A stretch of DNA of 64,000 nt from an uncultured virus (IMG/VR IMGVR_UViG_3300031951_021468) (IMGVR_UViG_3300031951_021468), one strand, 5' to 3'. Counted from the stretch's first letter, positions 3,924 through 30,282 are shown. Notes: generated by a model from the letters alone, not told the origin. A program made the numbers and translations.

Positions 3924-4008
3924 TGGTGGGAGCAGCAGGACTCGAACCTACGAACTGTTTCCAGAGGAGATTTACAGTCTCCCGCAATTGCCTCTATGCG
4001 ATACTCCC
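3924..4008 (-). tRNA. tRNA-Tyr(GTA)
   Basis: Cloverleaf, GGAGA-CTGTAAA-TCTCC, long variable arm, CCA. Confidence 0.93.
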
Positions 4009-4053
4009 TTGCTTTATCTGTTATGGTCGTTAATGCCTTCGCATTGAATGTCG

Positions 4054-4145
4054 TGGTGGGTGATGGAGGAATTTCACCTCTCGCCATATTTCCCCACGTT
4101 CTGATGCGGCACATGTTTTACAGACATGCAGGGGAGTCATCACCC
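4054..4145 (-). ncRNA. D-arm-less tRNA-Tyr-like RNA (GTA loop)
   Basis: 8-bp acceptor GGGTGATG/CATCACCC+ACCA; CATGT-CTGTAAA-ACATG arm; no D arm; TCCCC can pair with GGGGA in the long variable region. Confidence 0.65.
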
Positions 4146-4231
4146 AATGGTATAGTGATAGTCGCTTTCCATTGATTGTTTTATTTTATGATCGGGGCGG
4201 TCATCTCAGACCGCAATGTACGAGAAACTTG

Positions 4232-4373
4232 TGGGACCTATCGGAGTTGAACCAATGACTGATGCAGAAGTCTGACCTTCGGTCCCGATTGCAAGACAGG
4301 CAGGATTCGAACCTGCGATCTCTGGGGGTATGCATCGGCCCAGCGTTTCATCCGCAAAACTTCCGTCAAGCAA
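4232..4373 (-). ncRNA. Tandem pair of aberrant tRNA-like modules
   Basis: Module A (4289-4373) has D, T and acceptor stems with a 12-nt anticodon loop; module B (4232-4286) has acceptor and T arm but no anticodon arm; neither encodes CCA. Confidence 0.5.
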
Positions 4374-4434
4374 TCAAATTGTTTGTATATTTATTATACG
4401 CATACCGTTTGAATTTTGTTTCAATGTGTAAAAA

Positions 4435-4512
4435 TGGTCTGAGCGATTGGATTTGAACCAATGACCTCTACTCTCCCAGAGTAGCATTCTAACCAAACTG
4501 AACTACGCCCAG
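4435..4512 (-). tRNA. tRNA-Pro(GGG)
   Basis: Cloverleaf, CTACT-CTGGGAG-AGTAG, CCA. Confidence 0.92.
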
Positions 4513-4529
4513 ATTTAAACAAAATATTT

Positions 4530-4604
4530 TGGTGGGCGGTACAGGTTTCGAACCTGTGACCCCTACAATGTCAATGTAGTGCTCTACCACTGAGCTAACC
4601 GCCC
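4530..4604 (-). tRNA. tRNA-Val(GAC)
   Basis: Cloverleaf, CTACA-TTGACAT-TGTAG, CCA. Confidence 0.95.
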
Positions 4605-4696
4605 GCGTTTTTAGAACAGCAGCAGAGCCCTGAACTGAAATTACCTGGATGCTACTGTTCTAAACCTTTTCGGTTATTTAAAATTATACTAATCGG

Positions 4697-4771
4697 TGGT
4701 GGGCATGACAGGATTCGAACCTGCAACTTGATGCCTGTAATGCACCCACGCTACCATTGCGTCACACGCCC
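4697..4771 (-). tRNA. tRNA-Val(TAC)
   Basis: Cloverleaf, GGTGC-ATTACAG-GCATC, CCA. Confidence 0.88.
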
Positions 4772-4777
4772 ACATTT

Positions 4778-5539
4778 TTATTTTGCGGTTTCCAGCTTTC
4801 TCCAATAACCTCTTGGAGGCTTAGAAACTCCTAGCTTTTTACATCTTTTTTCAACAGCTTTGTCTGAAACACCAAATTCTTTTGCAATTTGACAAGTTGG
4901 CTTTTTCCATATTATCATCTCAAGTTCTTCTTTTTCTAATCCAAATTTTATGTACTTAGAAGGCTTTGGTGGCTGTGATCGATTGTTGTGTATATGGCAT
5001 TTTTTACATCTTGTAGATGTAGGCCTGCTAATTTTACCACCACAATCCAAACACTTCTTCGCTTTGTGTTTTCCGCTAAATGTTGGAGTTTGAGAGTGAC
5101 AATTTGGACACAAAATTCGAAGATTAACCAATCTGTTATCACAATTATTGCCATTAATATGATCAAGCTGTAATGAAATCGGCTTGCCATTCCATAATGA
5201 TCCTAATTTGCATTCACTACACTCATAAACAAAAATATTTTCTCTTAACAATCGTTTTTTTAAATCGTGTGATTGAATGGGCCGATTATTTGATAAATAT
5301 TCTTCCAAAGGAATTCGCTTATTTAATCTCTTGCAGCCTTTACTTGCTCCGATACCCAAAGGAATATGAGAAATATCTATACAATCCTGAGCAATGCGCT
5401 GTTTGATTCGGCTATGTTGAGCACCACTTATAGAAAGGCCAAAGCTGCGTATTATGCCCGCAATGCTCGTGCAATTATTAACTCGAAGTTGAAAATTTTC
5501 TTTGGATTCAGTCCATATTATAGATGTCTTTTTGTTCAT
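4778..5539 (-). CDS. HNH homing endonuclease with C-terminal zinc ribbon/HTH
   Basis: CSEC...LQLDHINGNNCDNRLVNLRILCPNCHSQT; start set at MNKKTS because the track ORF overlaps tRNA-Pro. Confidence 0.88.
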   Translation of the reverse strand: MNKKTSIIWTESKENFQLRVNNCTSIAGIIRSFGLSISGAQHSRIKQRIAQDCIDISHIPLGIGASKGCKRLNKRIPLEEYLSNNRPIQSHDLKKRLLRENIFVYECSECKLGSLWNGKPISLQLDHINGNNCDNRLVNLRILCPNCHSQTPTFSGKHKAKKCLDCGGKISRPTSTRCKKCHIHNNRSQPPKPSKYIKFGLEKEELEMIIWKKPTCQIAKEFGVSDKAVEKRCKKLGVSKPPRGYWRKLETAK

Positions 5540-5588
5540 ATTGTTTTTTGTACAATAAATATAATATGAACAAAGATTTTTTGAAAAA

Positions 5589-5665
5589 TGGTCGGGGATA
5601 CAGGACTCGAACCTGCGACCTGACGCTCCCAAAGCGCCCGCTCCACCAAACTGAGCTAATCCCCG
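5589..5665 (-). tRNA. tRNA-Pro(TGG)
   Basis: Cloverleaf, GGCGC-TTTGGGA-GCGTC, CCA. Confidence 0.94.
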
Positions 5666-5773
5666 ATTTTTTTCATTGATGCCATCAGACTTCCATGGTT
5701 TGGTTGGCACATTGACTTTTTATTGTCCGTTCGCCCCGCATCAATATTTAATGTCCTACCTTAGAACCGTTCG

Positions 5774-5849
5774 TGGTGGAGCCAGAGAGACTCGAACTCT
5801 CGACCCCCTGCTTGCAAAGCAGGTGCTCTCCCAACTGAGCTATGGCCCC
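5774..5849 (-). tRNA. tRNA-Ala(TGC)
   Basis: Canonical cloverleaf with G3-U70, CCA. Confidence 0.96.
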
Positions 5850-5921
5850 GAAAATGTTCTGTTATCTATAATACGATCAGAATCACAAAAAATTAGCGAT
5901 TTTATGAAATCTGATTAAAAA

Positions 5922-5998
5922 TGGTGACCCGCCAGAGTGTCGATCTCTGTTTGCCGCGCTGAAAACGCGGAGTCCTAGCCAACGTAGACGAGCGGGCC
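5922..5998 (-). tRNA. tRNA-Glu(TTC)
   Basis: CCGCG-TTTTCAG-CGCGG; T loop ATCGACA; CCA. Confidence 0.88.
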
Positions 5999-6103
5999 GC
6001 TCGATAAGGGAGGCTTCACCTTCTCGCCTCCCCCGACTTGAGCGCCTTTCCGCTCGGGTCAGATGTCTATCCATCAGTCATCGCAGTAGGTGTTTAATCA
6101 CTG

Positions 6104-6481
6104 CTAAGTCTTGGGCGGTGTGTCTTCGCCAAAAGTACGATAGAAGCTCACTTCGATAGAGTAGCAAGTGTCGAGTTCGCCACACCAGCGAATCACCACC
6201 GTCCCCTTGATTGTACCGATTCTATAGAACGTCCATTCTACAGATGTGTCTTCCGAAGAAGACTTTTCTGCGAAAAGAATCGGCGTTCCGACCAAATCGT
6301 TCAAGTCGCCACATATGTCTTCCACCCAAACTGCCTCGCAGCAATCCTGAAAGTGTGACATGTGATATGCTTCCTGATCGTCTACTATAAAGGAGATTTT
6401 TTCCTCTTTCTTGGAGTAAAAGACCTCTCTCAAAGTCTTGCCTTTCAGCACTTCGAAGTTTGCGTATTCCCATCTGTTCAT
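6104..6481 (-). CDS. Conserved phage hypothetical protein
   Basis: HFQDCCEAVWVEDICGDL...WTFYRIGTIKGTVVIRW pattern; GGAG SD; ends TAG-CAG-TGA. Confidence 0.8.
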   Translation of the reverse strand: MNRWEYANFEVLKGKTLREVFYSKKEEKISFIVDDQEAYHMSHFQDCCEAVWVEDICGDLNDLVGTPILFAEKSSSEDTSVEWTFYRIGTIKGTVVIRWCGELDTCYSIEVSFYRTFGEDTPPKT

Positions 6482-6534
6482 CTAATTATGTTCTCCATAT
6501 CAGTAGATTAGCACCAGACTAACAAATGAAAATT

Positions 6535-6611
6535 TGGTGACCCCACGGAGTGTCGATCTCCGTTTTCCACCGTGAGATGGTGGTGTCACAGCCATCGTAG
6601 ACGATGGGGCC
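6535..6611 (-). tRNA. tRNA-Glu(CTC)
   Basis: CCACC-ATCTCAC-GGTGG; T loop ATCGACA; CCA. Confidence 0.86.
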
Positions 6612-6619
6612 GAAAATTT

Positions 6620-6696
6620 TGGTGGGGCTAGAGGGAATTGAACCCTCACCCAAGGTTTTTCAGACCTTTGTGCTCACCAAATTACACCAATGCCCC
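6620..6696 (-). tRNA. tRNA-Phe(GAA)
   Basis: AAGGT-CTGAAAA-ACCTT, CCA. Confidence 0.88.
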
Positions 6697-6750
6697 ATTT
6701 GTTACACAAACCTCGCCCTCTTTCGGGGGTATGCTCTACCAAATACGTTT

Positions 6751-7161
6751 TTATGATGAAGTAAGCTTTAATCCATGCGGAGTATACTTGTCCCCCTGCA
6801 ATGTCACAAACACAAATTTTGCCGATGCCGTGTGAATGCGTTCAGGGAATTTTTGATCTCTTGGTTGTCGATACGCCTCTACTTGAACTGTGATTGAATT
6901 GTTTCTTAATTCAATAATTTCAGCTTCGAAGAAAATTTGATCTCCCATCTGAGCAGCTTTGTGAAAAGTTATTTCCAATACCTTATATGTTACTGCGTTG
7001 TCACAGGACGATTCTGAAAACTGAAGAAGTTCGCTACAAGCCGCGGCTGCACAAAGATCAAGCTTTGCCATAAAAGCTCCGCCAAAAATTTGTGGCATCC
7101 TAAAATTGCAATGTTCAGGCATTACAATAAAATTACTTTGGTATTTGGTTCTTAAATTCAT
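6751..7161 (-). CDS. Hotdog-fold acyl-CoA thioesterase
   Basis: VMPEHCN...IFGGAFMAKLD...FHKAAQMGDQI...FVFV motif. Confidence 0.85.
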   Translation of the reverse strand: MNLRTKYQSNFIVMPEHCNFRMPQIFGGAFMAKLDLCAAAACSELLQFSESSCDNAVTYKVLEITFHKAAQMGDQIFFEAEIIELRNNSITVQVEAYRQPRDQKFPERIHTASAKFVFVTLQGDKYTPHGLKLTSS

Positions 7162-7210
7162 AATGTTCCAACTTTAATACGATCATAATTCACAAAAGAT
7201 TTTGCAAACA

Positions 7211-7285
7211 TGGTGCCACCGATAGGATTCGAACCTATGACCCCGCCCTTATCAGGGGCGTGCTCTACCACTGAGCTACGACGGC
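7211..7285 (-). tRNA. tRNA-Ile(GAT)
   Basis: CGCCC-CTGATAA-GGGCG, CCA. Confidence 0.94.
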
Positions 7286-7299
7286 ACTTTACTTTCCTC

Positions 7300-7475
7300 A
7301 TACTGTTTCGAAGATCGGCGTGGAATTGCGACGCCGCGTTTTACTTCTGATCACGTGCGTGATCCTTCTCTACCCCACGGGGCGTCCTACCATTAAACGA
7401 CCAGACACAAGTGCCTGCGTGGGACTCGAACCCACATTTCCCCTCCGCATCCGATTAGAGTTCTCTTCGAACTGA
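7300..7475 (-). ncRNA. Y-RNA (YrlA)-like circularly permuted tRNA mimic
   Basis: Order T arm (7419-7435), loop-closed acceptor stem (7402-7417), D arm (7383-7399), enclosed by nested long-range stems. Confidence 0.55.
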
Positions 7476-7580
7476 TTACCGATCAGATTTTATCGGAAAA
7501 TATCATCGGGGGCTATTTAACAACGGCTGCTCAGCAAAGAAGTTGTGCTTCCGTGGCGTTTAGCCCCTTCAAATTGCCAA

Positions 7581-7743
7581 TACGTTGTGCGTTAGGGAAT
7601 CGAACCCCATGCGCCGCCGCTATTTGCTGCCTTTCAACACATTCCTGTTGGCTCAGAAAATCATGTTGTTGTGGACTCGAACCACTCACCCACCAAGGGA
7701 ACTTCAGAATCGAACTGAATACATACCATTTGCGCACAACGTA
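7581..7743 (-). ncRNA. Structured RNA with three T-loop hairpins inside an 11-bp closing stem
   Basis: TACGTTGTGCG/CGCACAACGTA ends; three hairpins with TTCGATT, TTCGAGT and TTCGATT loops. Confidence 0.55.
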
Positions 7744-7822
7744 AATCACTGAGGGCTTTTGCCCTCATATTACATTTAAACCTATTTAATTTTCAATATA
7801 CATACGAATCTCTTCGATAATT

Positions 7823-7909
7823 TGGCAGAGGCAGGGGGACTTGAACCCCCACTTGCATTAACTGTCCCTGGTTTTGGAGACCAGTGTTTTGCCATTAAAC
7901 TATACCCCT
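7823..7909 (-). tRNA. tRNA-Trp(CCA) with extended variable region
   Basis: CTGGT-CTCCAAA-ACCAG; 17-nt variable region; CCA. Confidence 0.85.
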
Positions 7910-21196: not shown

Positions 21197-23002
21197 TTAA
21201 GAATTATAGTAGTTTAAAATTGTCTCTCTTGAACTAAAGCCTCTGCTTCTGGGAGAAACAATAAGTGTTGGGGATGATTGTGCGCACTTAAATACACTCC
21301 TCTTTGATCGATTCCAGGCATCACGTGCCGCCGACACAAAAACATCCTTGGGATAATTGTATGGGTCGCATTCGCAAAAATAATCAGTAGTTAACGTGTG
21401 ATTATCATAGGCTTCTTCCAGGTCTCTTACAGTCATCCTGCGTCGGATAATTTCGGCACAAATTCCAGAATACAGAGGATAATCAAATGGGTCTTCGCTA
21501 CTGTCTGCAAGCTCAGCCATGGGCTTGGTGCTTCCATCATAAAGATTGATTGGAATGATTTCATCCTCATATATTTCATTGATATATTTCGCCAAGCAAT
21601 TTACCTCTGATTTTGTCAGGTCACCAAGCGGCTGGAAAAGACCCACGCTGCCCACGTCATGGAAAGTAAACCATCCAAGTACATTTTCAGTGTGATTGCC
21701 CGTGGAAATAATAGCCGATTTAAAATAATGACAGATTGACAGGCCAAGCAATGTTCGACCTACAGCATCTAATGTAGTGTCCACCATCTGGGGAAGCTCT
21801 TCGCTGGCAAGGGGCATGCGACAACCATCTTCTGCAGATTCCAAGTAAGCATTTTGGAAAATCGACTTGGCATGATTTGTAAGATCGCCCACGGGCATCC
21901 AATACAGGGGGACCCCGAGCTTGTCAGCAATGTACTGAGCATTATTTTTAGTAATATCTCCATTATATTGGGAGGGATTACTAATGAAAACACAACGATC
22001 AGGCCCAAGCGCCTTGGCGCAAAGCGCTGCCACAACGGCGCTGTCTATGCCACCAGAAACGTGAACTTGGGCACGCTCTATGCCAGTTTGGTCCATCAAC
22101 TGACGCAAAGCATATTTCAGGGCACACCAGATAGTCTGGTATTTATCATTCTTTGAATATAGAAATCTCCTTTGATTACGCTTGTCAATTCCATCCCAAT
22201 CATTGTCAAACCAATTGAAAATTTTCCCCTTTTTTAAGGAGCAAGATATAATTTTTTCTTCGAAAGACGGAAGGATGTCAAACAGATTGCCCAAGGCATC
22301 ATAAACCATCGACCTACCGTCATAAACCATAAAGTTCTTAACAATATCTCCCACCCCCACGGCGTTAACATAAAAAATTCCTACTTTATGATCTCGTGCA
22401 AGATTAGAAAGCAAATTTTGACGAGCTGAATGCTTCTCATAAGTGTAGTAACTATAGTTGATGCAAAAGATCATGGAAAGATCAGGATTGAGGGCTTTAA
22501 GCTCTGCAACCAAGTTTCGGTCATGATCGGGTGCCCAGATATCCTCACAGATAAGAACGCCCGCCACCTGATCGCCAACCTGGAATGTGAATAGATTCTC
22601 ACCAGGAATAAAATATTTTCGATCTTCATGCTGAAAATCATTAGCCAACAAAATCTTGTCGTAAACAGCAAGAAGTTTTCCGTCTCTTGCGATCATAGCA
22701 CTGTTGTGGAGTCTGATGTTACCGTTAGGTTCTCTATCAGGCGTGGCAAATCTCGGTGCTCCAAAAATAGCAGTTTTGTTTGTGCCCTTAGTCGCTTTAA
22801 CAATTTGATCCACACACTCAAGGGCGTCATTGATAAAGTCGTCACTTTCAAAAAGCGACCCGCAATTATACCCAGTGACAGCAAGTTCTGGAAATATAAT
22901 CACGGAATTGTCGCTTGATTCTTCCACGGTGTTGATAATTTTCGCAGTATTCCCGTATAGGTCGCCCGTGCGGAGTTCTAATTGAGCAATAACAATGTTC
23001 AT
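21197..23002 (-). CDS. nadE: Glutamine-dependent NAD+ synthetase
   Basis: CN-hydrolase domain (FPEL, K, ICED) fused to the SGGIDS synthetase domain. Confidence 0.93.
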   Translation of the reverse strand: MNIVIAQLELRTGDLYGNTAKIINTVEESSDNSVIIFPELAVTGYNCGSLFESDDFINDALECVDQIVKATKGTNKTAIFGAPRFATPDREPNGNIRLHNSAMIARDGKLLAVYDKILLANDFQHEDRKYFIPGENLFTFQVGDQVAGVLICEDIWAPDHDRNLVAELKALNPDLSMIFCINYSYYTYEKHSARQNLLSNLARDHKVGIFYVNAVGVGDIVKNFMVYDGRSMVYDALGNLFDILPSFEEKIISCSLKKGKIFNWFDNDWDGIDKRNQRRFLYSKNDKYQTIWCALKYALRQLMDQTGIERAQVHVSGGIDSAVVAALCAKALGPDRCVFISNPSQYNGDITKNNAQYIADKLGVPLYWMPVGDLTNHAKSIFQNAYLESAEDGCRMPLASEELPQMVDTTLDAVGRTLLGLSICHYFKSAIISTGNHTENVLGWFTFHDVGSVGLFQPLGDLTKSEVNCLAKYINEIYEDEIIPINLYDGSTKPMAELADSSEDPFDYPLYSGICAEIIRRRMTVRDLEEAYDNHTLTTDYFCECDPYNYPKDVFVSAARDAWNRSKRSVFKCAQSSPTLIVSPRSRGFSSRETILNYYNS

Positions 23003-23030: not shown

Positions 23031-23357
23031 TTATACCACGGGTTTCCATGTGTTAAATTTTCTAAAAGCCTTTCTTTTTTCTCCCCAGATTGGTTCCGTG
23101 CAAATTGCAGTGTCTCCCATCTGGTCATCAGGCTCGTAAAAAGTAACAAATTTTATGTCATTCTCTTGGCAAACATAGCTTATTTTTTCCAATTCAAATG
23201 TATTTTCAACCGAGCAAAGAACAAGGTGGCAAGAATCGGGGCAGCCAAATTTAGCTCCCGATTCTTGCGCAGCATGACAGGCCTGAACCATCTGGTCCGC
23301 TACGCCAATGTCTTTTCTAACGAAAATATATATATAAGGCGCGGTAGTCTAGCTCAT
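23031..23357 (-). CDS. PTH2-like peptidyl-tRNA hydrolase with in-frame TAG at codon 3
   Basis: ATG-AGC-TAG-ACT...YIYIFVRKD...QMVQACHAA...FYEPD...TAI; ATG overlaps the upstream TGA; the track ORF (start 23291) lacks the conserved first strand. Confidence 0.75.
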
Positions 23358-24079
23358 GATTTTTCACCACTATCTATGGCACCAAGAGTTTCGTCAGTCC
23401 ATCCATTGTTTCCGCATTTTAAGCCCGTTGACGTTGAAGCATACTCTACTGTGGCGATTGCAAATGCAGGGAAGCTTTTATCCCAATAGGATATTTGCAC
23501 AATTTGATTTAAATCAAGCCACTGCGGACATTCATGCCAATATTCTTGCTTAAATTTAATTTCTCCGATCTTAATATTTGAAAGATCAACAATATTTACG
23601 TAATTAGGCGAATTACAGAACGGGTCATACCCCATTACAAAAGCAAAATCTGCATGGCACCATGCTTCATTATCCTTATAATCTTCTTCAATTTCTTTGT
23701 CCACAAGAGTAAAAGCAACTCCTTTATATACTACATGATGAAATCTGGGTATATAAAATTCTAAAAACTTAATGCAACCCTGTGGTTCAAGTTCAGCTAA
23801 TAATTTCATTTCTGGCAATGAATAGACAAATATTTTTTTGCTTTCACTTACTAGTGCGTACCATTCACCGTCATGTCTAAACGGATGAAACACAACACGC
23901 GGGGACTTAAAATCGGAAACCTCGTATGTTCCTATTTTAGTTTCTGAGTCCTCATTAACCTCATAGACATCAACATAGTGATATTTAATCTTGTGAACTT
24001 TTCCGTCACTAAACTTGCAAGGCTTTAAAAAACCTTCACCAAGGCGAGCAACATATGGCGGTTTGTATTCGGTAGTCAT
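23354..24079 (-). CDS. Hypothetical protein
   Basis: Start MTTEYK after AAAGGA, coupled to the upstream stop. Confidence 0.75.
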   Translation of the reverse strand: MTTEYKPPYVARLGEGFLKPCKFSDGKVHKIKYHYVDVYEVNEDSETKIGTYEVSDFKSPRVVFHPFRHDGEWYALVSESKKIFVYSLPEMKLLAELEPQGCIKFLEFYIPRFHHVVYKGVAFTLVDKEIEEDYKDNEAWCHADFAFVMGYDPFCNSPNYVNIVDLSNIKIGEIKFKQEYWHECPQWLDLNQIVQISYWDKSFPAFAIATVEYASTSTGLKCGNNGWTDETLGAIDSGEKS

Positions 24080-24080
24080 T

Positions 24081-24674
24081 TTAGTTTCCTTTGTATTTTT
24101 CCATAAGCCGATGATATTCTTTAAGTTCATTTTCTTCTCGTTCTTTTTTACGTTGTCTTTCGCGGTCGCGGGCATCTTTAATCTCTTGTGCTTTTTTCTC
24201 TTGCGCGGCTTTTTCTTTTTCGGTTTTCATATTGTCAATAACGCTGGTGTCCCAGAGTGCCTGTATAGGAATATCATAAGAATATTCTTCATCGGGACAG
24301 CACCCCCTCAAACATCCACGAGAAGAATATTCAACCGTGATATGGTCGTCGCCAATAGCATAAATTCGTTGAAACCTTTCTCCGCTTTCTCCCATTGTGA
24401 GCACGTAATAATCAGAAACCATTTTAATTTTTTCTTCAAAAGCTTTATATAGCTTTGACATTAAAATAACAGACCTTTCGGTCCAATTTTCGGATTGTTT
24501 ATCATAGTCTGCTGGCACCCAGGTCTCTGGGTCAGCAAGGGTTACAAGCTCGACGCCATCCCTAATACGAGGCGCTTGATAGTGGTCGAATGCCTGAGCC
24601 AGACTTCGTGATCCATAAGTTTCCAAAGTCTCAACCACTTGCAAATCTTCATTTATTACAATTTTAGGCCACAT
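24081..24674 (-). CDS. Hypothetical protein with C-terminal coiled coil
   Basis: Start MWPKIV overlapping the end of the upstream gene. Confidence 0.7.
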   Translation of the reverse strand: MWPKIVINEDLQVVETLETYGSRSLAQAFDHYQAPRIRDGVELVTLADPETWVPADYDKQSENWTERSVILMSKLYKAFEEKIKMVSDYYVLTMGESGERFQRIYAIGDDHITVEYSSRGCLRGCCPDEEYSYDIPIQALWDTSVIDNMKTEKEKAAQEKKAQEIKDARDRERQRKKEREENELKEYHRLMEKYKGN

Positions 24675-25107
24675 TCTCGGAAGAATCCTCCAAAATATAA
24701 GCGCTTTGCTTAAGTATATTTTCCCTTCTATCAAGACGATAATAAAATTTAGAAATAGATTTTGCAGTTTCGAGATTTAAAATATCCCCGAAATTATCAG
24801 CCCAAAATTTTTGACTCTTTGATACTGGACAAGCCATTGATCTCAGGATTGTACTAGAAGTATACATTGAGTTTGAAACAATAATTGGAGTCTCGTACTC
24901 CCAAGATGGGTCTTGCTTTTTGGGCATTGTAAATCCTTTTCTCCAATCTTTTCCACGAAGAATTGCATAAAGCATGTAATCTGCTGCAGTAAGTTTGTAT
25001 TCTGAGTTAGAATTTACAATTTCACTCCATTTAGACCGAAGCTTTTCGTAGCCATCAGGAGAGTTAAAGAACGTCGATGTTATGTTTTTATTAAGTGTGT
25101 TTTTCAT
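24664..25107 (-). CDS. Hypothetical protein (LYAILRGK motif), first gene after the amber minigene
   Basis: 147-aa ORF; start region complementary to 25171-25181. Confidence 0.8.
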   Translation of the reverse strand: MKNTLNKNITSTFFNSPDGYEKLRSKWSEIVNSNSEYKLTAADYMLYAILRGKDWRKGFTMPKKQDPSWEYETPIIVSNSMYTSSTILRSMACPVSKSQKFWADNFGDILNLETAKSISKFYYRLDRRENILKQSAYILEDSSENVA

Positions 25108-25223
25108 ATTTGTATTTCTGTTTGTAATCGTGGGCTATGCAAAGCCATGAACGAAGTTAGTGAATGGAATTACAAATATGATTAAGGCGGACGAATGACC
25201 TACAACATAGGTGAGACCTCCTT
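25104..25223 (-). promoter_or_regulatory. Amber-containing minigene with anti-start helix (translational switch)
   Basis: SD AAGGAGGT 25216-25223; ATG TTG TAG GTC ATT CGT CCG CCT TAA 25208-25182; TCATATTTGTA pairs with TACAAATATGA over the downstream ATG. Confidence 0.7.
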
Positions 25224-25378
25224 TTTAATTGAGCCGTTAATTTGCCCAATAAAATAAATCAATCTTGATGAAATTATCAGGGGACGAGCCTGAACATCTC
25301 TGCAAATATGGATGGGTTTTTCCATCGTCTTTTTCCTGTGGCGCAGAGTTAATCCACTTGTACCAGAACACCATATAT

Positions 25379-25454
25379 TGGTGAAGGGAGTGGGGATCGA
25401 ACCCACGACATGCTGATTAAGAGTCAGCTGCTCTACCGACTGAGCTATCCCTCC
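25379..25454 (-). tRNA. tRNA-Lys(CTT)
   Basis: GCTGA-CTCTTAA-TCAGC, CCA. Confidence 0.95.
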
Positions 25455-25465
25455 ATGAAAAATTC

Positions 25466-25541
25466 TGGTGGGCCAGGCGGGGCTCGAACCCGCGACCCGC
25501 GGTTTAAAAGACCGCTGCTCTACCAACTGAGCTACTGACCC
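25466..25541 (-). tRNA. tRNA-Lys(TTT)
   Basis: GCGGT-CTTTTAA-ACCGC, CCA. Confidence 0.95.
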
Positions 25542-25609
25542 AAAATTTAAAGTTTTGGCCCCGAAGGTTTTCTGATCGCAGGAAAAGTTAAAAATAACTT
25601 TTGATTTGC

Positions 25610-25700
25610 AGACACATACGCAAAGAGGCCAGATTCTAGCCTCGGAAAGAACTAGAACCTAGTAATGTTTAGGTTTGCGTTTAAGAATGTTGTGTCTCAT
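25610..25700 (-). promoter_or_regulatory. Lys-rich leader ORF with alternative hairpins upstream of the tRNA-Lys genes
   Basis: MRHNILKRKPKHY-TAG (25700-25659), three AAA codons, overlapping 1:2, 2:3 and 3:4 pairings. Confidence 0.45.
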
Positions 25701-25757
25701 TTTGAATTACCTTAATTCTCGTGTTATATCTTTAATACCTGCTTTTCAACAAAAAAG

Positions 25758-25973
25758 TTAGCATCTTTTCCGAAAAATTTCAAAAAATAAAGCAATTAAG
25801 AAAATAGCAAGCACGGAAATGCCCAAGCTGGCAAATATATTTAGGCTCAAAATCAATGATAAGGCCTTTGCTATAATTAAAATAAAAATGCTTATGACGG
25901 CCCCATACATGACCCCTTTAAGAAATACGCCGTCTGGTTGATCAGATTCTTGATAATTGTTTTTGTTTGACAT
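25758..25973 (-). CDS. Small membrane protein (two TM helices)
   Basis: MSNKNNY...two hydrophobic stretches; track start overlaps a tRNA. Confidence 0.65.
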   Translation of the reverse strand: MSNKNNYQESDQPDGVFLKGVMYGAVISIFILIIAKALSLILSLNIFASLGISVLAIFLIALFFEIFRKRC

Positions 25974-25997
25974 GACTCTGTATTGTTTTAGAAACCT

Positions 25998-26072
25998 TGG
26001 CGCTCTAGGCGGGACTCGAACCCGCGACATGCCCTTTTAGAGAGGGCCACTCTACCACTGAGTTACTAGAGC
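25998..26072 (-). tRNA. Amber suppressor tRNA (anticodon CTA) #1
   Basis: Full cloverleaf, GCCCT-CTCTAAA-AGGGC, G73, CCA. Confidence 0.9.
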
Positions 26073-26093
26073 GCGTATTTTTAATATATTGTC

Positions 26094-26164
26094 TGCTCCA
26101 CACGGGAATCGAACCCGCGACCAAGGTTTTAGAGACCCCAGCTCTACCATTGAGCTAATGGAGC
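26094..26164 (-). tRNA. Amber suppressor tRNA (anticodon CTA) #2, no encoded CCA
   Basis: Cloverleaf, GGGGT-CTCTAAA-ACCTT, acceptor GCTCCAT/GTGGAGC, A73. Confidence 0.82.
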
Positions 26165-26238
26165 AAGCAATATAATTATAATACGTATTTTTAAATAAAA
26201 AGTAGGCAATTTGGGACTAAAAACCCAAAAAAAATCAT

Positions 26239-26403
26239 ATGAACCGAAAAGTTTTTTATGTAGAATGCAGTCGGCCTGGAGTTTATAGCGGAGTCAAATT
26301 TAAAGCAGGAGATATTAAAAAATTCTATTCACTTTTGGCTGCTCAGCATTTTATTAAAAAAGCCCCTGTGGGCATGTTTAAGTTGAGTCCGCCCAAAAAA
26401 TAA
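26239..26403 (+). CDS. Small basic hypothetical protein (54 aa)
   Basis: Hand-translated MNRKVFYVEC...SPPKK*, ends at the hairpin shared with tmRNA. Confidence 0.45.
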   Translation: MNRKVFYVECSRPGVYSGVKFKAGDIKKFYSLLAAQHFIKKAPVGMFKLSPPKK

Positions 26404-26405
26404 AA

Positions 26406-26428
26406 GCAGTATGAAAAAATCATACTGC
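26406..26428. terminator. Hairpin between convergent small ORF and tmRNA
   Basis: GCAGTATGA/TCATACTGC. Confidence 0.6.
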
Positions 26429-26433
26429 AAAAT

Positions 26434-26791
26434 TGGTGGAGGCAGCGGGATTTGAACCCGCTTGTTGTCCGTACAGAGCCTATGCTCGCCACAAGGTTCT
26501 CCTCATATTAATCTTAAGTCAAGCTTTGGCTAGAGGCCAGCACTTTCTTGACAGCAGCTTGATTAATATCGCTTTTTCAACTACAAGCCGAAGTTTCAAA
26601 GCTAAGTCTGATTTATTTTACAATCCCCATTAACTACAGACTCGTCTCAGGTTCATGCGCCAGCTTAATTAAGCAGCGAAAGCGAAGTTGTTTTCCGCAT
26701 TTACTTTTTGCATCCTTTGTTATCGCGGCCAAGGATACATCCGCGCCTTGCAAACATAAGATAGCAACGTCAATCGATCCCTTATGCCCCC
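26434..26791 (-). ncRNA. ssrA: tmRNA, tag peptide (A)AENNFAFAA
   Basis: GGGGGCA/TGCCTCC-ACCA acceptor with G3-U70, T arm, tag ORF 26698-26669. Confidence 0.93.
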
Positions 26792-26838
26792 GTAGTGTTT
26801 TATTATTCTACGTTTGTTGATCAACACCTGTTGCAAAT

Positions 26839-27600
26839 TCACTCTAAATCAAAAAGTTCATCAGTTGAAAGATTACCATCTTTATCTATTTCCCCAAGAT
26901 TATATGGGGCAAACTGAGCCCCGTTATATCCCCAGCCGAAGTCCCCAGTCCTCAAAATAGGCTTTTGCGCCTTGGCATGCCCGTCAGACCAAAGTACTAC
27001 GCCATGCTTATTGTGTCGGCCCTGAAATGTTGGGAAATCGAAAGAAGGTGGCTCTAAGTATCCCGTGCCCTCTAAAACAGGATTGTCATAAGCCCATGTA
27101 TTTAGTCTCGCATTTGATGCAAAAGCGACTGTCTCAGATGGAAACTCAATCGATGAAGCATTTACGGGAATGGGATTTTCTTCCCAGTTCGGAGGAGAAT
27201 AAGTTGACGGACTCAAATAAGCATAATTATATCCATACCCAGAGAAATTCATACTTCCCGTAACTTGAGCATTAAAAGATGAATCCTTGTAAATACCATT
27301 GTTTCGAGTATAAGGATATAAAAGGCCTTCCTCAACTCTAAGTTCTTGTTCGTCTTCTTCCCAACATCCCCACCAATAAACCACACCATGCTCATCAGGC
27401 ACAGAAACTCTCATTAAGGTATCATCGTAGTCAGTATTGTAAAGCTGCCAGGAAATACCAAGTTGGCGCATGTTGGAAATCGACTGAGTTTTCTTGGCAG
27501 CTTCCTTTGCTTGTGAAAAAACTGGGAAAAGGATTGCAGCCAAAACCGCGATAATTGCGATCACAACAAGTAATTCAATAAGTGTAAAAGCCTGTCTCAT
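26839..27600 (-). CDS. Prepilin-type N-terminal cleavage/methylation domain protein (H-X9-DG C-terminus)
   Basis: [25 protein letters not shown]...[16 protein letters not shown]. Confidence 0.92.
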
Positions 27601-27677
27601 AATAATTCTAATATAATTGGCCCAACTACAATCAGTTGAGCCAATTATTATACGTTATATAATGCAGTTTTGTTGCA

Positions 27678-28553
27678 TTACGGACATGGAGTGTTGCCGA
27701 GTTTGTATGGGTCCCAAAATGATTCTGCGCCCCGATCTCTCAGGTTGTTCAGAATTGCATTAGCTGCAACGGCTCTTGAACTAGTGTCGCCCTGAACCAT
27801 ATTCAATGGTCCATTATATCGGTTATTAATCAATCGCAGAGCTTCAGCGTCAGATGGCGTGTTTGGTCCACCATTCCATCTAAAGAGATAGGAGTTGCCG
27901 AGATTCTTCCAATACAACGGGTAACTGCTGCTGCACACATTAAATGTGCCAGTGTATCCATTAAGTCTTCCAACGAATCGGGGAAGAACATTATAATAGC
28001 TTGCATCAACCATAATCAAAGTATTGCTTGGTTCTGCTATTTCGCCCATATTAAGCCCCCCGCCGATTGATGACGTGCCCGCCTGAGATGTAAACACATA
28101 ATTGTTAACACCATAGCTGTTTTGTCCGCCGTAAGATCGGAATGCAGGTTCAGTGTCAGAACCGAAAGTATCAACGCCAGCCCAGGCATTTGGCTTGGTA
28201 GGTGCCTTGAAAATATCATTATTTTTCATATATGGTTGCAGAAGCTGGTTAAAGAAAATAACATTTCTTGCACTAGTTCCTACAACGCTATCGGCATACG
28301 CCTGCCCCCGAGCAGCAATGGCGCGGGCATAATCGGGGTTTTGTGTACCATTAAGTCGGTACGGAAACAGCATGTCATCATAATCGCCGACATACAGCTG
28401 CATTGATGTTCCAATCTGTTTAACTTGGGTTAAACCAACAGTTTTCTTGGCGGCAAGCTTGGCCTGAGAAAAGACGGGGAAAAGAATCGCAGCTAAAATA
28501 GCAATAATTGCGATAACAACAAGAAGTTCGATGAGCGTAAAGGCTTTCTTCAT
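27678..28553 (-). CDS. Prepilin-type N-terminal cleavage/methylation domain protein
   Basis: [32 protein letters not shown]...YVGDYDD. Confidence 0.92.

Positions 28554-28638: not shown

Positions 28639-30282
<1,644 letters not shown>

Follow-up and report, generated by a model that had tools for sequence, protein, structure and literature searches.

A leader minigene apparently gated by a suppressor tRNA: a predicted translational switch in the genome of an uncultured virus

Why should a minigene led by a Shine-Dalgarno (SD)-like sequence reach an amber stop at its third codon, when the same frame runs on to Arg-Pro-Pro and a second stop, and when a helix that buries the start codon of the next gene begins at the very first base past that second stop? 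The question is raised by a leader on the minus strand of a 64,000-nucleotide stretch of DNA from an uncultured virus (IMGVR_UViG_3300031951_021468), which is referred to here as the window and whose numbering is used throughout. The contig to which the window belongs is a single piece of 378,848 bp; it encodes 34 tRNAs and a transfer-messenger RNA (tmRNA) and looks like the genome of a jumbo phage. The answer proposed here, to which we give a probability of roughly 75%, is that the leader is a translational switch that takes as its input the reading of a stop codon by a cis-encoded suppressor tRNA and works via ribosome arrest. The elements of the leader and the gene that it would control (gene A) are as follows, with the basis of each call, which in several cases includes a minimum free energy (MFE) fold.

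25216..25223, minus strand: Shine-Dalgarno-like AAGGAGGT (sequence; SD-like purine runs also precede the minigene in most other loci)
25200..25208, minus strand: gate ATG TTG TAG, Met-Leu-amber (sequence, and conservation in 31/31 loci)
25182..25199, minus strand: readthrough extension GTC ATT CGT CCG CCT TAA, V-I-R-P-P-stop (sequence)
25171..25181, minus strand: 5' arm of the helix, beginning at the first base past the TAA (sequence, MFE fold, comparison of arms)
25115..25170, minus strand: 56-nt loop with an inner hairpin (MFE structure)
25104..25114, minus strand: 3' arm of the helix, including the gene A start codon at 25107-25105 (sequence, MFE fold, shuffles)
24664..25107, minus strand: gene A, 147 aa, with an invariant LRGKDWRK motif and an all-helical model (open reading frame (ORF) and family alignment)

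Direct reading of the minus strand bears out the anatomy that an earlier note, made from this sequence alone, had described. AAGGAGGT at 25223-25216 is followed after a 7-nt spacer by the minigene ATG TTG TAG GTC ATT CGT CCG CCT TAA (25208-25182), and the 11 nt directly 3' of its TAA (25181-25171, TCATATTTGTA) match the reverse complement of 25114-25104 (TACAAATATGA) at every position, and this second stretch includes the ATG (25107-25105) of the 147-aa ORF at 24664-25107. In 10 of 11 aligned family members the protein starts with M-(N/K)-T-L at this ATG, which is taken as the real start. The TTG of the gate is a possible alternative start, TTG-TAG forms being known in two other loci (L033 and L049). 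The candidate stall is proposed to be a ribosome with R-P-P in its P site and the TAA (25184-25182) in its A site.

The helix is also found by folding, since the MFE structure of 25090-25235 contains exactly these 11 bp (z = -3.15), and only 1 of 200 shuffles folds equally well. With a modelled ribosome covering -15 to +15 and the gene A initiation site taken as -18 to +12, the cost of opening that site was 10.9 kcal/mol in the free RNA, 1.0 kcal/mol with a ribosome at PP-TAA and 11.3 kcal/mol with a ribosome at the TAG. A ribosome with the TAA in its A site covers 10 of the 11 nt of the 5' arm, and in four other loci (L006, L007, L013 and L014) the opening cost drops by 7-13 kcal/mol in the same kind of model. 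The earlier note had suggested that stopping at the TAG keeps the helix closed, whereas readthrough parks a ribosome at PP-TAA and frees the start, and both the folding and the sequence comparison described below support this scheme. In these models a stalled ribosome disrupts the structure hiding the downstream SD or start codon, and the intact helix would be expected to block initiation.

A scan of the 379-kb genome returned this leader as the sole case of a TAG-gated RxPP or RPP-stop leader. Comparison was made with loci elsewhere. Gene A homologues were collected with their surrounding DNA: 2 loci in viral contigs, 19 in metagenome contigs (the own genome included) and 6 in species genomes; a class-level genome search added 1 new locus, with a match in 2/151 genomes of the class of genome G001, and a scan centred on gene B, the second gene of the arrangement, gave 13 further viral loci. 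A phage GenBank collection gave tRNA matches only, and a single-sequence scan of viral contigs gave no match. Duplicates (L017, L036, L038, L041, L044, L045 and L047), loci without gene A (L048, L050 and L051) and one with an unclear gene A start (L043) were left out, and a single script was run on the remaining 31 loci, i.e. the own locus and 30 others from large phages and metagenome-assembled genomes (MAGs) of Chloroflexia, Armatimonadota and Abditibacteriaceae. Near-identical sequences make up three sets (L007-L010, L011/L012 and L018/L020), which brings the number of independent lineages closer to 25. The arrangement, whose conservation had been left to be checked, is present in the order gate, Pro-Pro, helix in 30/30 of the other loci examined.

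The gate itself recurs in all 31 loci as a start codon, 0-4 further codons and a stop, and readthrough of that stop reaches an in-frame Pro-Pro without meeting a stop of another kind. The second codon of the gate shows synonymous variation (TTG, CTG, TTA and CTC for Leu; ACG, ACT and ACA for Thr), and a second in-frame cognate stop precedes the Pro-Pro in L001, L002, L013, L015, L018, L032, L034, L039 and L042. The putative partners of the gate in the window are two tRNA genes.

26093..26165, minus strand: suppressor tRNA copy 1, anticodon CUA, amber (ARAGORN; Rfam tRNA 60.5 bits; related by alignment to the cassette tRNAs of other loci)
25998..26072, minus strand: suppressor tRNA copy 2, anticodon CUA, amber (ARAGORN; Rfam tRNA 69.0 bits; same tRNA alignment)

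Both are canonical tRNAs with an amber anticodon and are predicted suppressors, encoded on the strand of the leader at 0.8-0.95 kb upstream. That readthrough should be the input, as had been supposed from the sequence alone, agrees with the wider set, in which the gate stop is cognate to an upstream, same-strand stop-anticodon tRNA in 26 of the 26 loci where such a tRNA was detected. These comprise 24 TAG/CUA pairs, one ochre pair (TAA/UUA, L004) and one opal pair (TGA/UCA, L046). In a control by the same procedure with non-cognate gates, 30 loci gave no candidate, and L046 gave three overlapping frames, all within its tRNA gene. In seven loci fetched after the model was formed (L031-L035, L037 and L039), the predicted tRNA (not in the sequence of L039), gate, motif and helix were present. 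Several variants of the gate were also seen. Two tandem ATG TTG TAG minigenes in the same frame occur at L001:2335-2376, which places two amber gates ahead of its RAPP motif. The opal version (L046/L047, ~2283-2944) consists of a UCA tRNA, then the leader ATG ATC AAC TGC TGA, then V-R-A-P-P, and at L051:2801-3738 a UCA tRNA directly precedes a gene like that for peptidyl-tRNA hydrolase 2 (PTH2), whose start region reads ...GGG TGA ATG...

What lies past the gate stop has the marks of a translated frame. All 27 CCNCC motifs between gate and gene in a set of 20 loci are in the frame of the gate, the distance from gate to Pro-Pro being 24-84 nt; the Arg and Pro codons of the readthrough frame differ at synonymous positions, and on this comparison the frame is under coding constraint. 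The Pro-Pro stall that had been postulated for the own minigene finds a counterpart in the other loci, the readthrough frame encoding the published RxPP motif or (R/S)PP-stop. R-[A/G/S/P]-P-P was counted in 22 of the 31 loci, in each case near the C-terminus of a small co-oriented upstream ORF. R-P-P-stop, the variant of the own locus, was counted in 5 (own, L033, L035, L039 and L049) and S-P-P in 4 (L002 and L004, and L040 and L042 with a stop directly after). In the seven loci of the Pro-Pro-stop type (own, L033, L035, L039, L049, L040 and L042), the final stop is invariably non-cognate to the tRNA. The readthrough peptide is 8 residues long in the own locus and 8-40 in the others. RAPP and RGPP are experimentally established arrest sequences, with R-A-P in the P site and Pro-tRNA in the A site, and this arrest is refractory to elongation factor P (EF-P) and tolerates varied N-terminal contexts (PMC12992588); RxPP has been described as the minimally sufficient arrest motif (PMC10951233), and poly-Pro C-termini are reported in a review to slow termination (PMC6412442). 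On the model, RPP-stop or RxPP would arrest the ribosomes in question.

As for the helix that the arrested ribosome would meet, in 18 of 20 loci the 5' arm begins between 4 nt inside and 5 nt past the stall codon; in L019 it lies under the stall codons, and the MFE helix of L002 is placed under K-S-P. The 3' arm covers the GGAGA SD of gene A in most other loci and the start codon in the own one. When arms were swapped between 17 loci, the mean pairing energy was -16.4 kcal/mol for cognate arms vs -10.4 kcal/mol for swapped ones, the own pair (-14.0 kcal/mol) being the best in both its row and its column. A joint alignment of all 17 hairpins mixed registers, and a 14-locus subset in one register was therefore used for pair counting, from which the own locus, L002, L004, L007, L008, L019, L033 and L035 and the duplicates or near-duplicates L009, L010, L012, L017 and L036 were left out. 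In this subset 88.6% of cells pair, against 30-54% with slid partners, compensatory two-sided changes occur in 5 of 12 pairs, and the covariation score was reached by 0 of 500 shuffles. The arms thus covary in homologues, as the earlier note had asked of a functional helix; because the 14 sequences are related, this is support for the helix rather than proof of it.

The same kind of gate is found in a second gene. Gene B encodes a conserved protein of ~100 aa. Initial counting placed it after gene A in 17 of 20 loci, and a profile search found it in 23; L033 lacks it, and it is cut off in three loci (L005, L008 and L016). In 17 other loci gene B lies within a few tens of bases of gene A, and in the own genome alone two ORFs stand between them.

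23031..23357, minus strand: gene B, PTH2-like, with ATG at 23357-23355, AGC, TAG at 23351-23349 and then the conserved protein in frame (sequence)
24081-24734, minus strand: inserted ORF, 217 aa, own genome only, which as listed overlaps the end of gene A by ~70 nt
23354-24175, minus strand: inserted ORF, 273 aa, between A and B, own genome only

The ATG of gene B overlaps the stop of the 273-aa ORF that precedes it. Its gate, i.e. a start, 1-4 codons and the cognate stop with conserved sequence following in frame, is present in 16 of the 19 loci listed, with TAA in the ochre locus, and gene B is likewise gated in L037, L039, L048 and L050. PF01981 (PTH2) matches 6 of 13 gene B members (best E 1.5e-4), the own 86-aa piece being unmatched, and a full-length gene B profile matched peptidyl-tRNA hydrolases in the PDB at E 7.5e-4, 0.08 and 0.56. 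In two large viral contigs (L039:2926-3255 and L050:2932-3309) a second in-frame TAG lies in the middle of the conserved domain of this gene, so that the full-length protein would need two suppression events.

Gene A belongs to a family of 826 representatives at E<=1e-3 (382 at E<=1e-10). It had no match in Pfam, PHROGs, PADLOC or NCBIfam, the Atlas gave hypothetical proteins only, and an AlphaFold2 model (predicted local distance difference test score 75.9) gave no convincing fold match. PDB profile matches to the mitoribosomal protein uS7m (E 0.14-0.6) came without other support and were treated as noise.

From this anatomy and its conservation, the conserved frame, the match between stop and anticodon and the covariation of the helix, all of which are found in the sequences themselves, we infer suppression and an ON/OFF output along the following lines. 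A ribosome would initiate at the SD-led minigene and come upon the amber codon at position 3. Where release factor wins, the ribosome would leave after Met-Leu, the 11-bp helix would remain closed and the start codon of gene A would stay buried (OFF). Where the amber-suppressor tRNA wins, five more codons would be translated and the ribosome would stall on R-P-P with the non-cognate TAA in its A site or, in most relatives, on R-x-P|P during elongation; the stalled ribosome would occupy the 5' arm, the helix could not form and the gene A initiation site would be exposed (ON). Gene B, further downstream in the operon, would also be under direct control of that cognate stop, in frame at its own codon 3.

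Several points weigh against this reading, some of them specific to the own locus. Its suppressor tRNAs do not adjoin the leader, two tRNA-Lys genes and a small ORF intervening. Its gene A has no SD, and the weight of AAGGAGGT before the minigene is uncertain because use of the SD is weak genome-wide, an SD-like motif being absent before the first ATG in 279 of 411 long ORFs. Its helix is AT-rich, with one G-C pair, and closes a 56-nt loop. The nascent chain would be only 7 residues long at the stall and may be too short for robust arrest, and the RPP-stop form departs from RxPP stalling, which occurs during elongation. RNA evidence was sought in 8 runs, which gave small shares only and in which uncovered parts are uninformative; cover of the leader amounts to two 151-nt contigs at depth 2 in one metatranscriptome (X1) and might be DNA carry-over. 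Among the other loci, the modelled effect of the ribosome is small in L035 (10.3 to 8.4 kcal/mol), the MFE structure of the opal locus L046 pairs the gene A start with a partner upstream of the minigene, and gene B is ungated in the L007-L010 lineage, L032, L040 and L043. No stop-anticodon tRNA was called in the sequence examined of 5 of the 31 loci, two of which are cut (L007, which begins within the tRNA, and L020); in L035 the tRNA is oddly called by ARAGORN, and L039 and L040 have no stop-anticodon tRNA within 3 kb. Finally, many loci are related by descent, so that the counts overstate the number of independent events.

How else might such a leader be explained? It might be an ordinary arrest-peptide leader in which the TAG is always decoded as sense and the input is EF-P activity, proline supply or general translation stress at the Pro-Pro, in which case hairpin and stall would act identically. 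This seems difficult to reconcile with a stop that stands at codons 2-6 in 31/31 loci, its place never being taken by a sense codon, and that becomes TAA or TGA exactly where the anticodon of the tRNA changes. The genome moreover uses a mostly standard code: TAG terminates 32 of its 301 ORFs of 150 codons or more, and reading TAG as sense raises ORF coverage only from 0.88 (code 11) to 0.91, less than is gained when TGA or TAA is read as sense. Genome-wide recoding of TAG (code 15) was rejected on account of this small gain and of the lack of any domain spanning the TAG in 8 long frames with an internal TAG; among these recoding checks L022 appears to be a pair of neighbouring genes. The only supported in-frame TAGs in the genome are within the cassette itself, gene B having the same cognate stop. 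A constitutively translated arrest leader is on this evidence improbable. Two related candidates were also discarded. A general habit of ATG-NNN-TAG gates was looked for and no enrichment was found, at least 60 open codons following 10 of 161 TAG, 14 of 309 TAA and 12 of 231 TGA sites, and an N-terminal extension of gene A through the in-frame TAG at 25137-25135 would lie in a frame that has no start codon.

The strong SD and two-codon ORF also bring to mind a bar-like minigene, whose Met-Leu-stop would yield peptidyl-tRNA drop-off and burden the host, the PTH2-like gene B handling the product and the helix being an unrelated translational or stability element. The presence of a peptidyl-tRNA-hydrolase-like gene in the same cassette in 23 loci would be in accord with this. 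Left unexplained, however, would be the in-frame and synonymously varying RxPP past the stop, the match of stop and anticodon and the stall site adjoining a covarying arm, and synthesis of gene B itself would require readthrough; we regard this explanation as very unlikely.

Equally hard to credit is a switch of opposite sign, in which readthrough and stalling would trigger mRNA cleavage or rescue, or otherwise lower gene A expression, so that suppression turned the operon OFF. Stalled ribosomes can provoke cleavage and rescue, and a phage tmRNA gene lies ~1.2 kb upstream. Yet the stall site, being 47-106 nt upstream of the gene A start, cannot occlude that start, footprint modelling only opens the site, and the need of gene B for suppression is consistent with co-induction. 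As for a chance arrangement in the window with no regulatory role, short upstream ORFs and AT-rich inverted repeats are common and AAGGAGGT is unremarkable alone (4 genome occurrences on both strands vs ~10 expected, a hand estimate from base composition), but only 4 of 2000 dinucleotide shuffles of the 277-nt leader gave a perfect Watson-Crick helix of 11 bp or more across the start codon, and the conservation of the whole arrangement, with covariation, in 30 other loci is decisive, which leaves this explanation next to no credence.

The preferred reading, a switch thrown by suppression of the gate stop, also suggests what the arrangement might be for. tRNA, leader, gene A and gene B would together form a portable cassette, present in jumbo phages and bacterial chromosomes and existing in an amber, an ochre and an opal form. 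MAGs (Chloroflexia, Armatimonadota and Abditibacteriaceae) account for six loci and viral contigs of 100-440 kb for others, several loci are flanked by cellular genes (GH5 cellulase, PxpB/C-like carboxyltransferases, EF-G, a ZipA_C-domain protein and an ABC transporter), and the gene is sporadic, as its occurrence in 2/151 genomes in the class of G001 illustrates; taken together, these features make the cassette look portable. The suppressor tRNA, rather than serving to recode the genome, may then be the trans-acting signal of a self-contained portable switch, with A and B feeding back as a suppression homeostat and being the only clients in the own phage, a tentative proposal to which we would give somewhat less than even odds. 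A and B might, for example, hydrolyse the charged or peptidyl suppressor, or clean up after readthrough. A PTH2-like enzyme made only under suppression could, speculatively, act as feedback on suppression or in clean-up after it. In one sublineage (L001 (717-2316), L014, L016 and L018) an extra conserved gene of ~155 aa lies between suppressor tRNA and leader, and a gene of the PspA/IM30 family lies upstream.

The surroundings of the leader in the window contain further RNA genes.

25379..25541, minus strand: two tRNA-Lys genes (UUU, CUU) between the suppressor tRNAs and the leader (ARAGORN, Rfam)
26434..26791, minus strand: phage tmRNA, tag peptide AENNFAFAA, directly upstream of the suppressor tRNAs (ARAGORN; Rfam 91.3 bits)

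The tRNA neighbours recur in L002, where two tRNA-Lys genes are followed by the suppressor. Between the suppressor tRNAs and the tRNA-Lys pair lies a small ORF (25758-26030, minus strand) with a hydrophobic C-terminal half, whose listed start overlaps a tRNA, so that the true start is probably further in. Contigs of 309-341 nt matching the tmRNA at 100% identity were found at depth 30-57 in four freshwater metatranscriptome runs. On the leader no Rfam family reached its gathering score, the hits at E<=10 being noise of 11.9-18 bits vs gathering scores of 35-75, and counts of promoters and terminators in 24900-26900 were not above shuffled expectation. Elsewhere in the window a cluster of 12 tRNA genes lies at 3924-7909 (minus strand), in which the tRNA-Trp (7823-7909) is 87 nt long and the tRNA-Ser(cga) looks atypical, which suggests that they may carry insertions or introns. 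The phage genome also has two pseudopilin-like genes with an N-terminal methylation motif, GroEL and a glutamine-dependent NAD synthetase (26839-28553, 28639-30279 and 21197-23002, minus strand).

If the switch operates as proposed, it would be a natural device that gauges the contest between suppressor tRNA and release factor and gives gene expression as its output, a logic that synthetic biologists have built by hand. RxPP arrest peptides would gain a new kind of input, and a compact, ready-made reporter of suppression would be at hand in amber, ochre and opal forms. It would further follow that some suppressor tRNAs of standard-code phages and bacteria travel with two uncharacterised partners (the 826-representative family and the PTH2-like protein), and how cells and phages tolerate, time or limit stop-codon suppression would become testable.

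Parts of such a device are familiar from several systems. In the ermC and cat leaders, an antibiotic-stalled ribosome in the leader ORF melts a hairpin hiding the SD or start of the next gene; the melting of a sequestering hairpin by a leader stall is shared, whereas the input there is an antibiotic and neither a stop gate nor a tRNA partner is known. In prfB, which encodes release factor 2 (RF2), termination at an early in-frame stop competes with a +1 frameshift and so reports the level of RF2. An early in-frame stop likewise senses termination against alternative decoding here, but suppression is by a dedicated tRNA, in a separate leader and with an arrest motif and helix as output, while the prfB frameshift is inside the regulated gene. 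The lambda bar minigenes are SD-led two-codon ORFs that cause peptidyl-tRNA drop-off, which is the form that the gate takes here, although bar is not known to have a conserved coding sequence past its stop.

The closest counterparts of the output are ApdA and ApdP, in which a small upstream ORF ends in R-x-P-P, R-x-P is held in the P site and the stalled ribosome is thought to open a structure hiding the downstream ribosome-binding site (PMC12992588, PMC10951233). In ApdA/ApdP, as in SecM and MifM, the ribosome always reaches the motif, relief coming from the force of secretion or insertion on a signal-bearing chain, whereas here a stop at codons 2-6, matched by the anticodon of a suppressor tRNA nearby, would decide whether the motif is reached, and seven lineages, including the own one, would stall at (R/S)-P-P-stop. 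A role of the leader as a substrate that monitors Sec or YidC was rejected, the readthrough peptide having only 8 residues here (8-40 elsewhere) and the downstream genes being family A and the PTH2-like gene rather than sec or yidC. On the side of the input, amber codons have been placed in trp and tna leaders to make expression dependent on a suppressor tRNA (Liu, Qi, Yanofsky and Arkin 2011, as reviewed in PMC6412442); as presented in that review, these switches are engineered, transcriptional in output (rut/attenuator) and served by an orthogonal tRNA/synthetase pair, while the present one would be natural, translational and served by its own tRNA. In recoded phages an encoded suppressor tRNA permits genes with in-frame stops, and a phage response to suppressor tRNAs has been put forward as speculation (bioRxiv 10.1101/2021.08.26.457843); those phages are recoded genome-wide and the own genome is not, and a cis sensor with arrest motif and helix is not described in the parts of that preprint consulted. 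A search of full-text literature outside subscription journals returned no natural leader gated by or sensing a suppressor tRNA; what it did return concerned RxPP arrest peptides, phages that are recoded and have suppressor tRNAs, theta ribozymes next to such tRNAs in phages and engineered amber-leader switches. The kind of device, i.e. leader-peptide translational attenuation via an arrest motif, is thus known, and it is the input, the matched tRNA and the three stop-codon versions that appear to be new.

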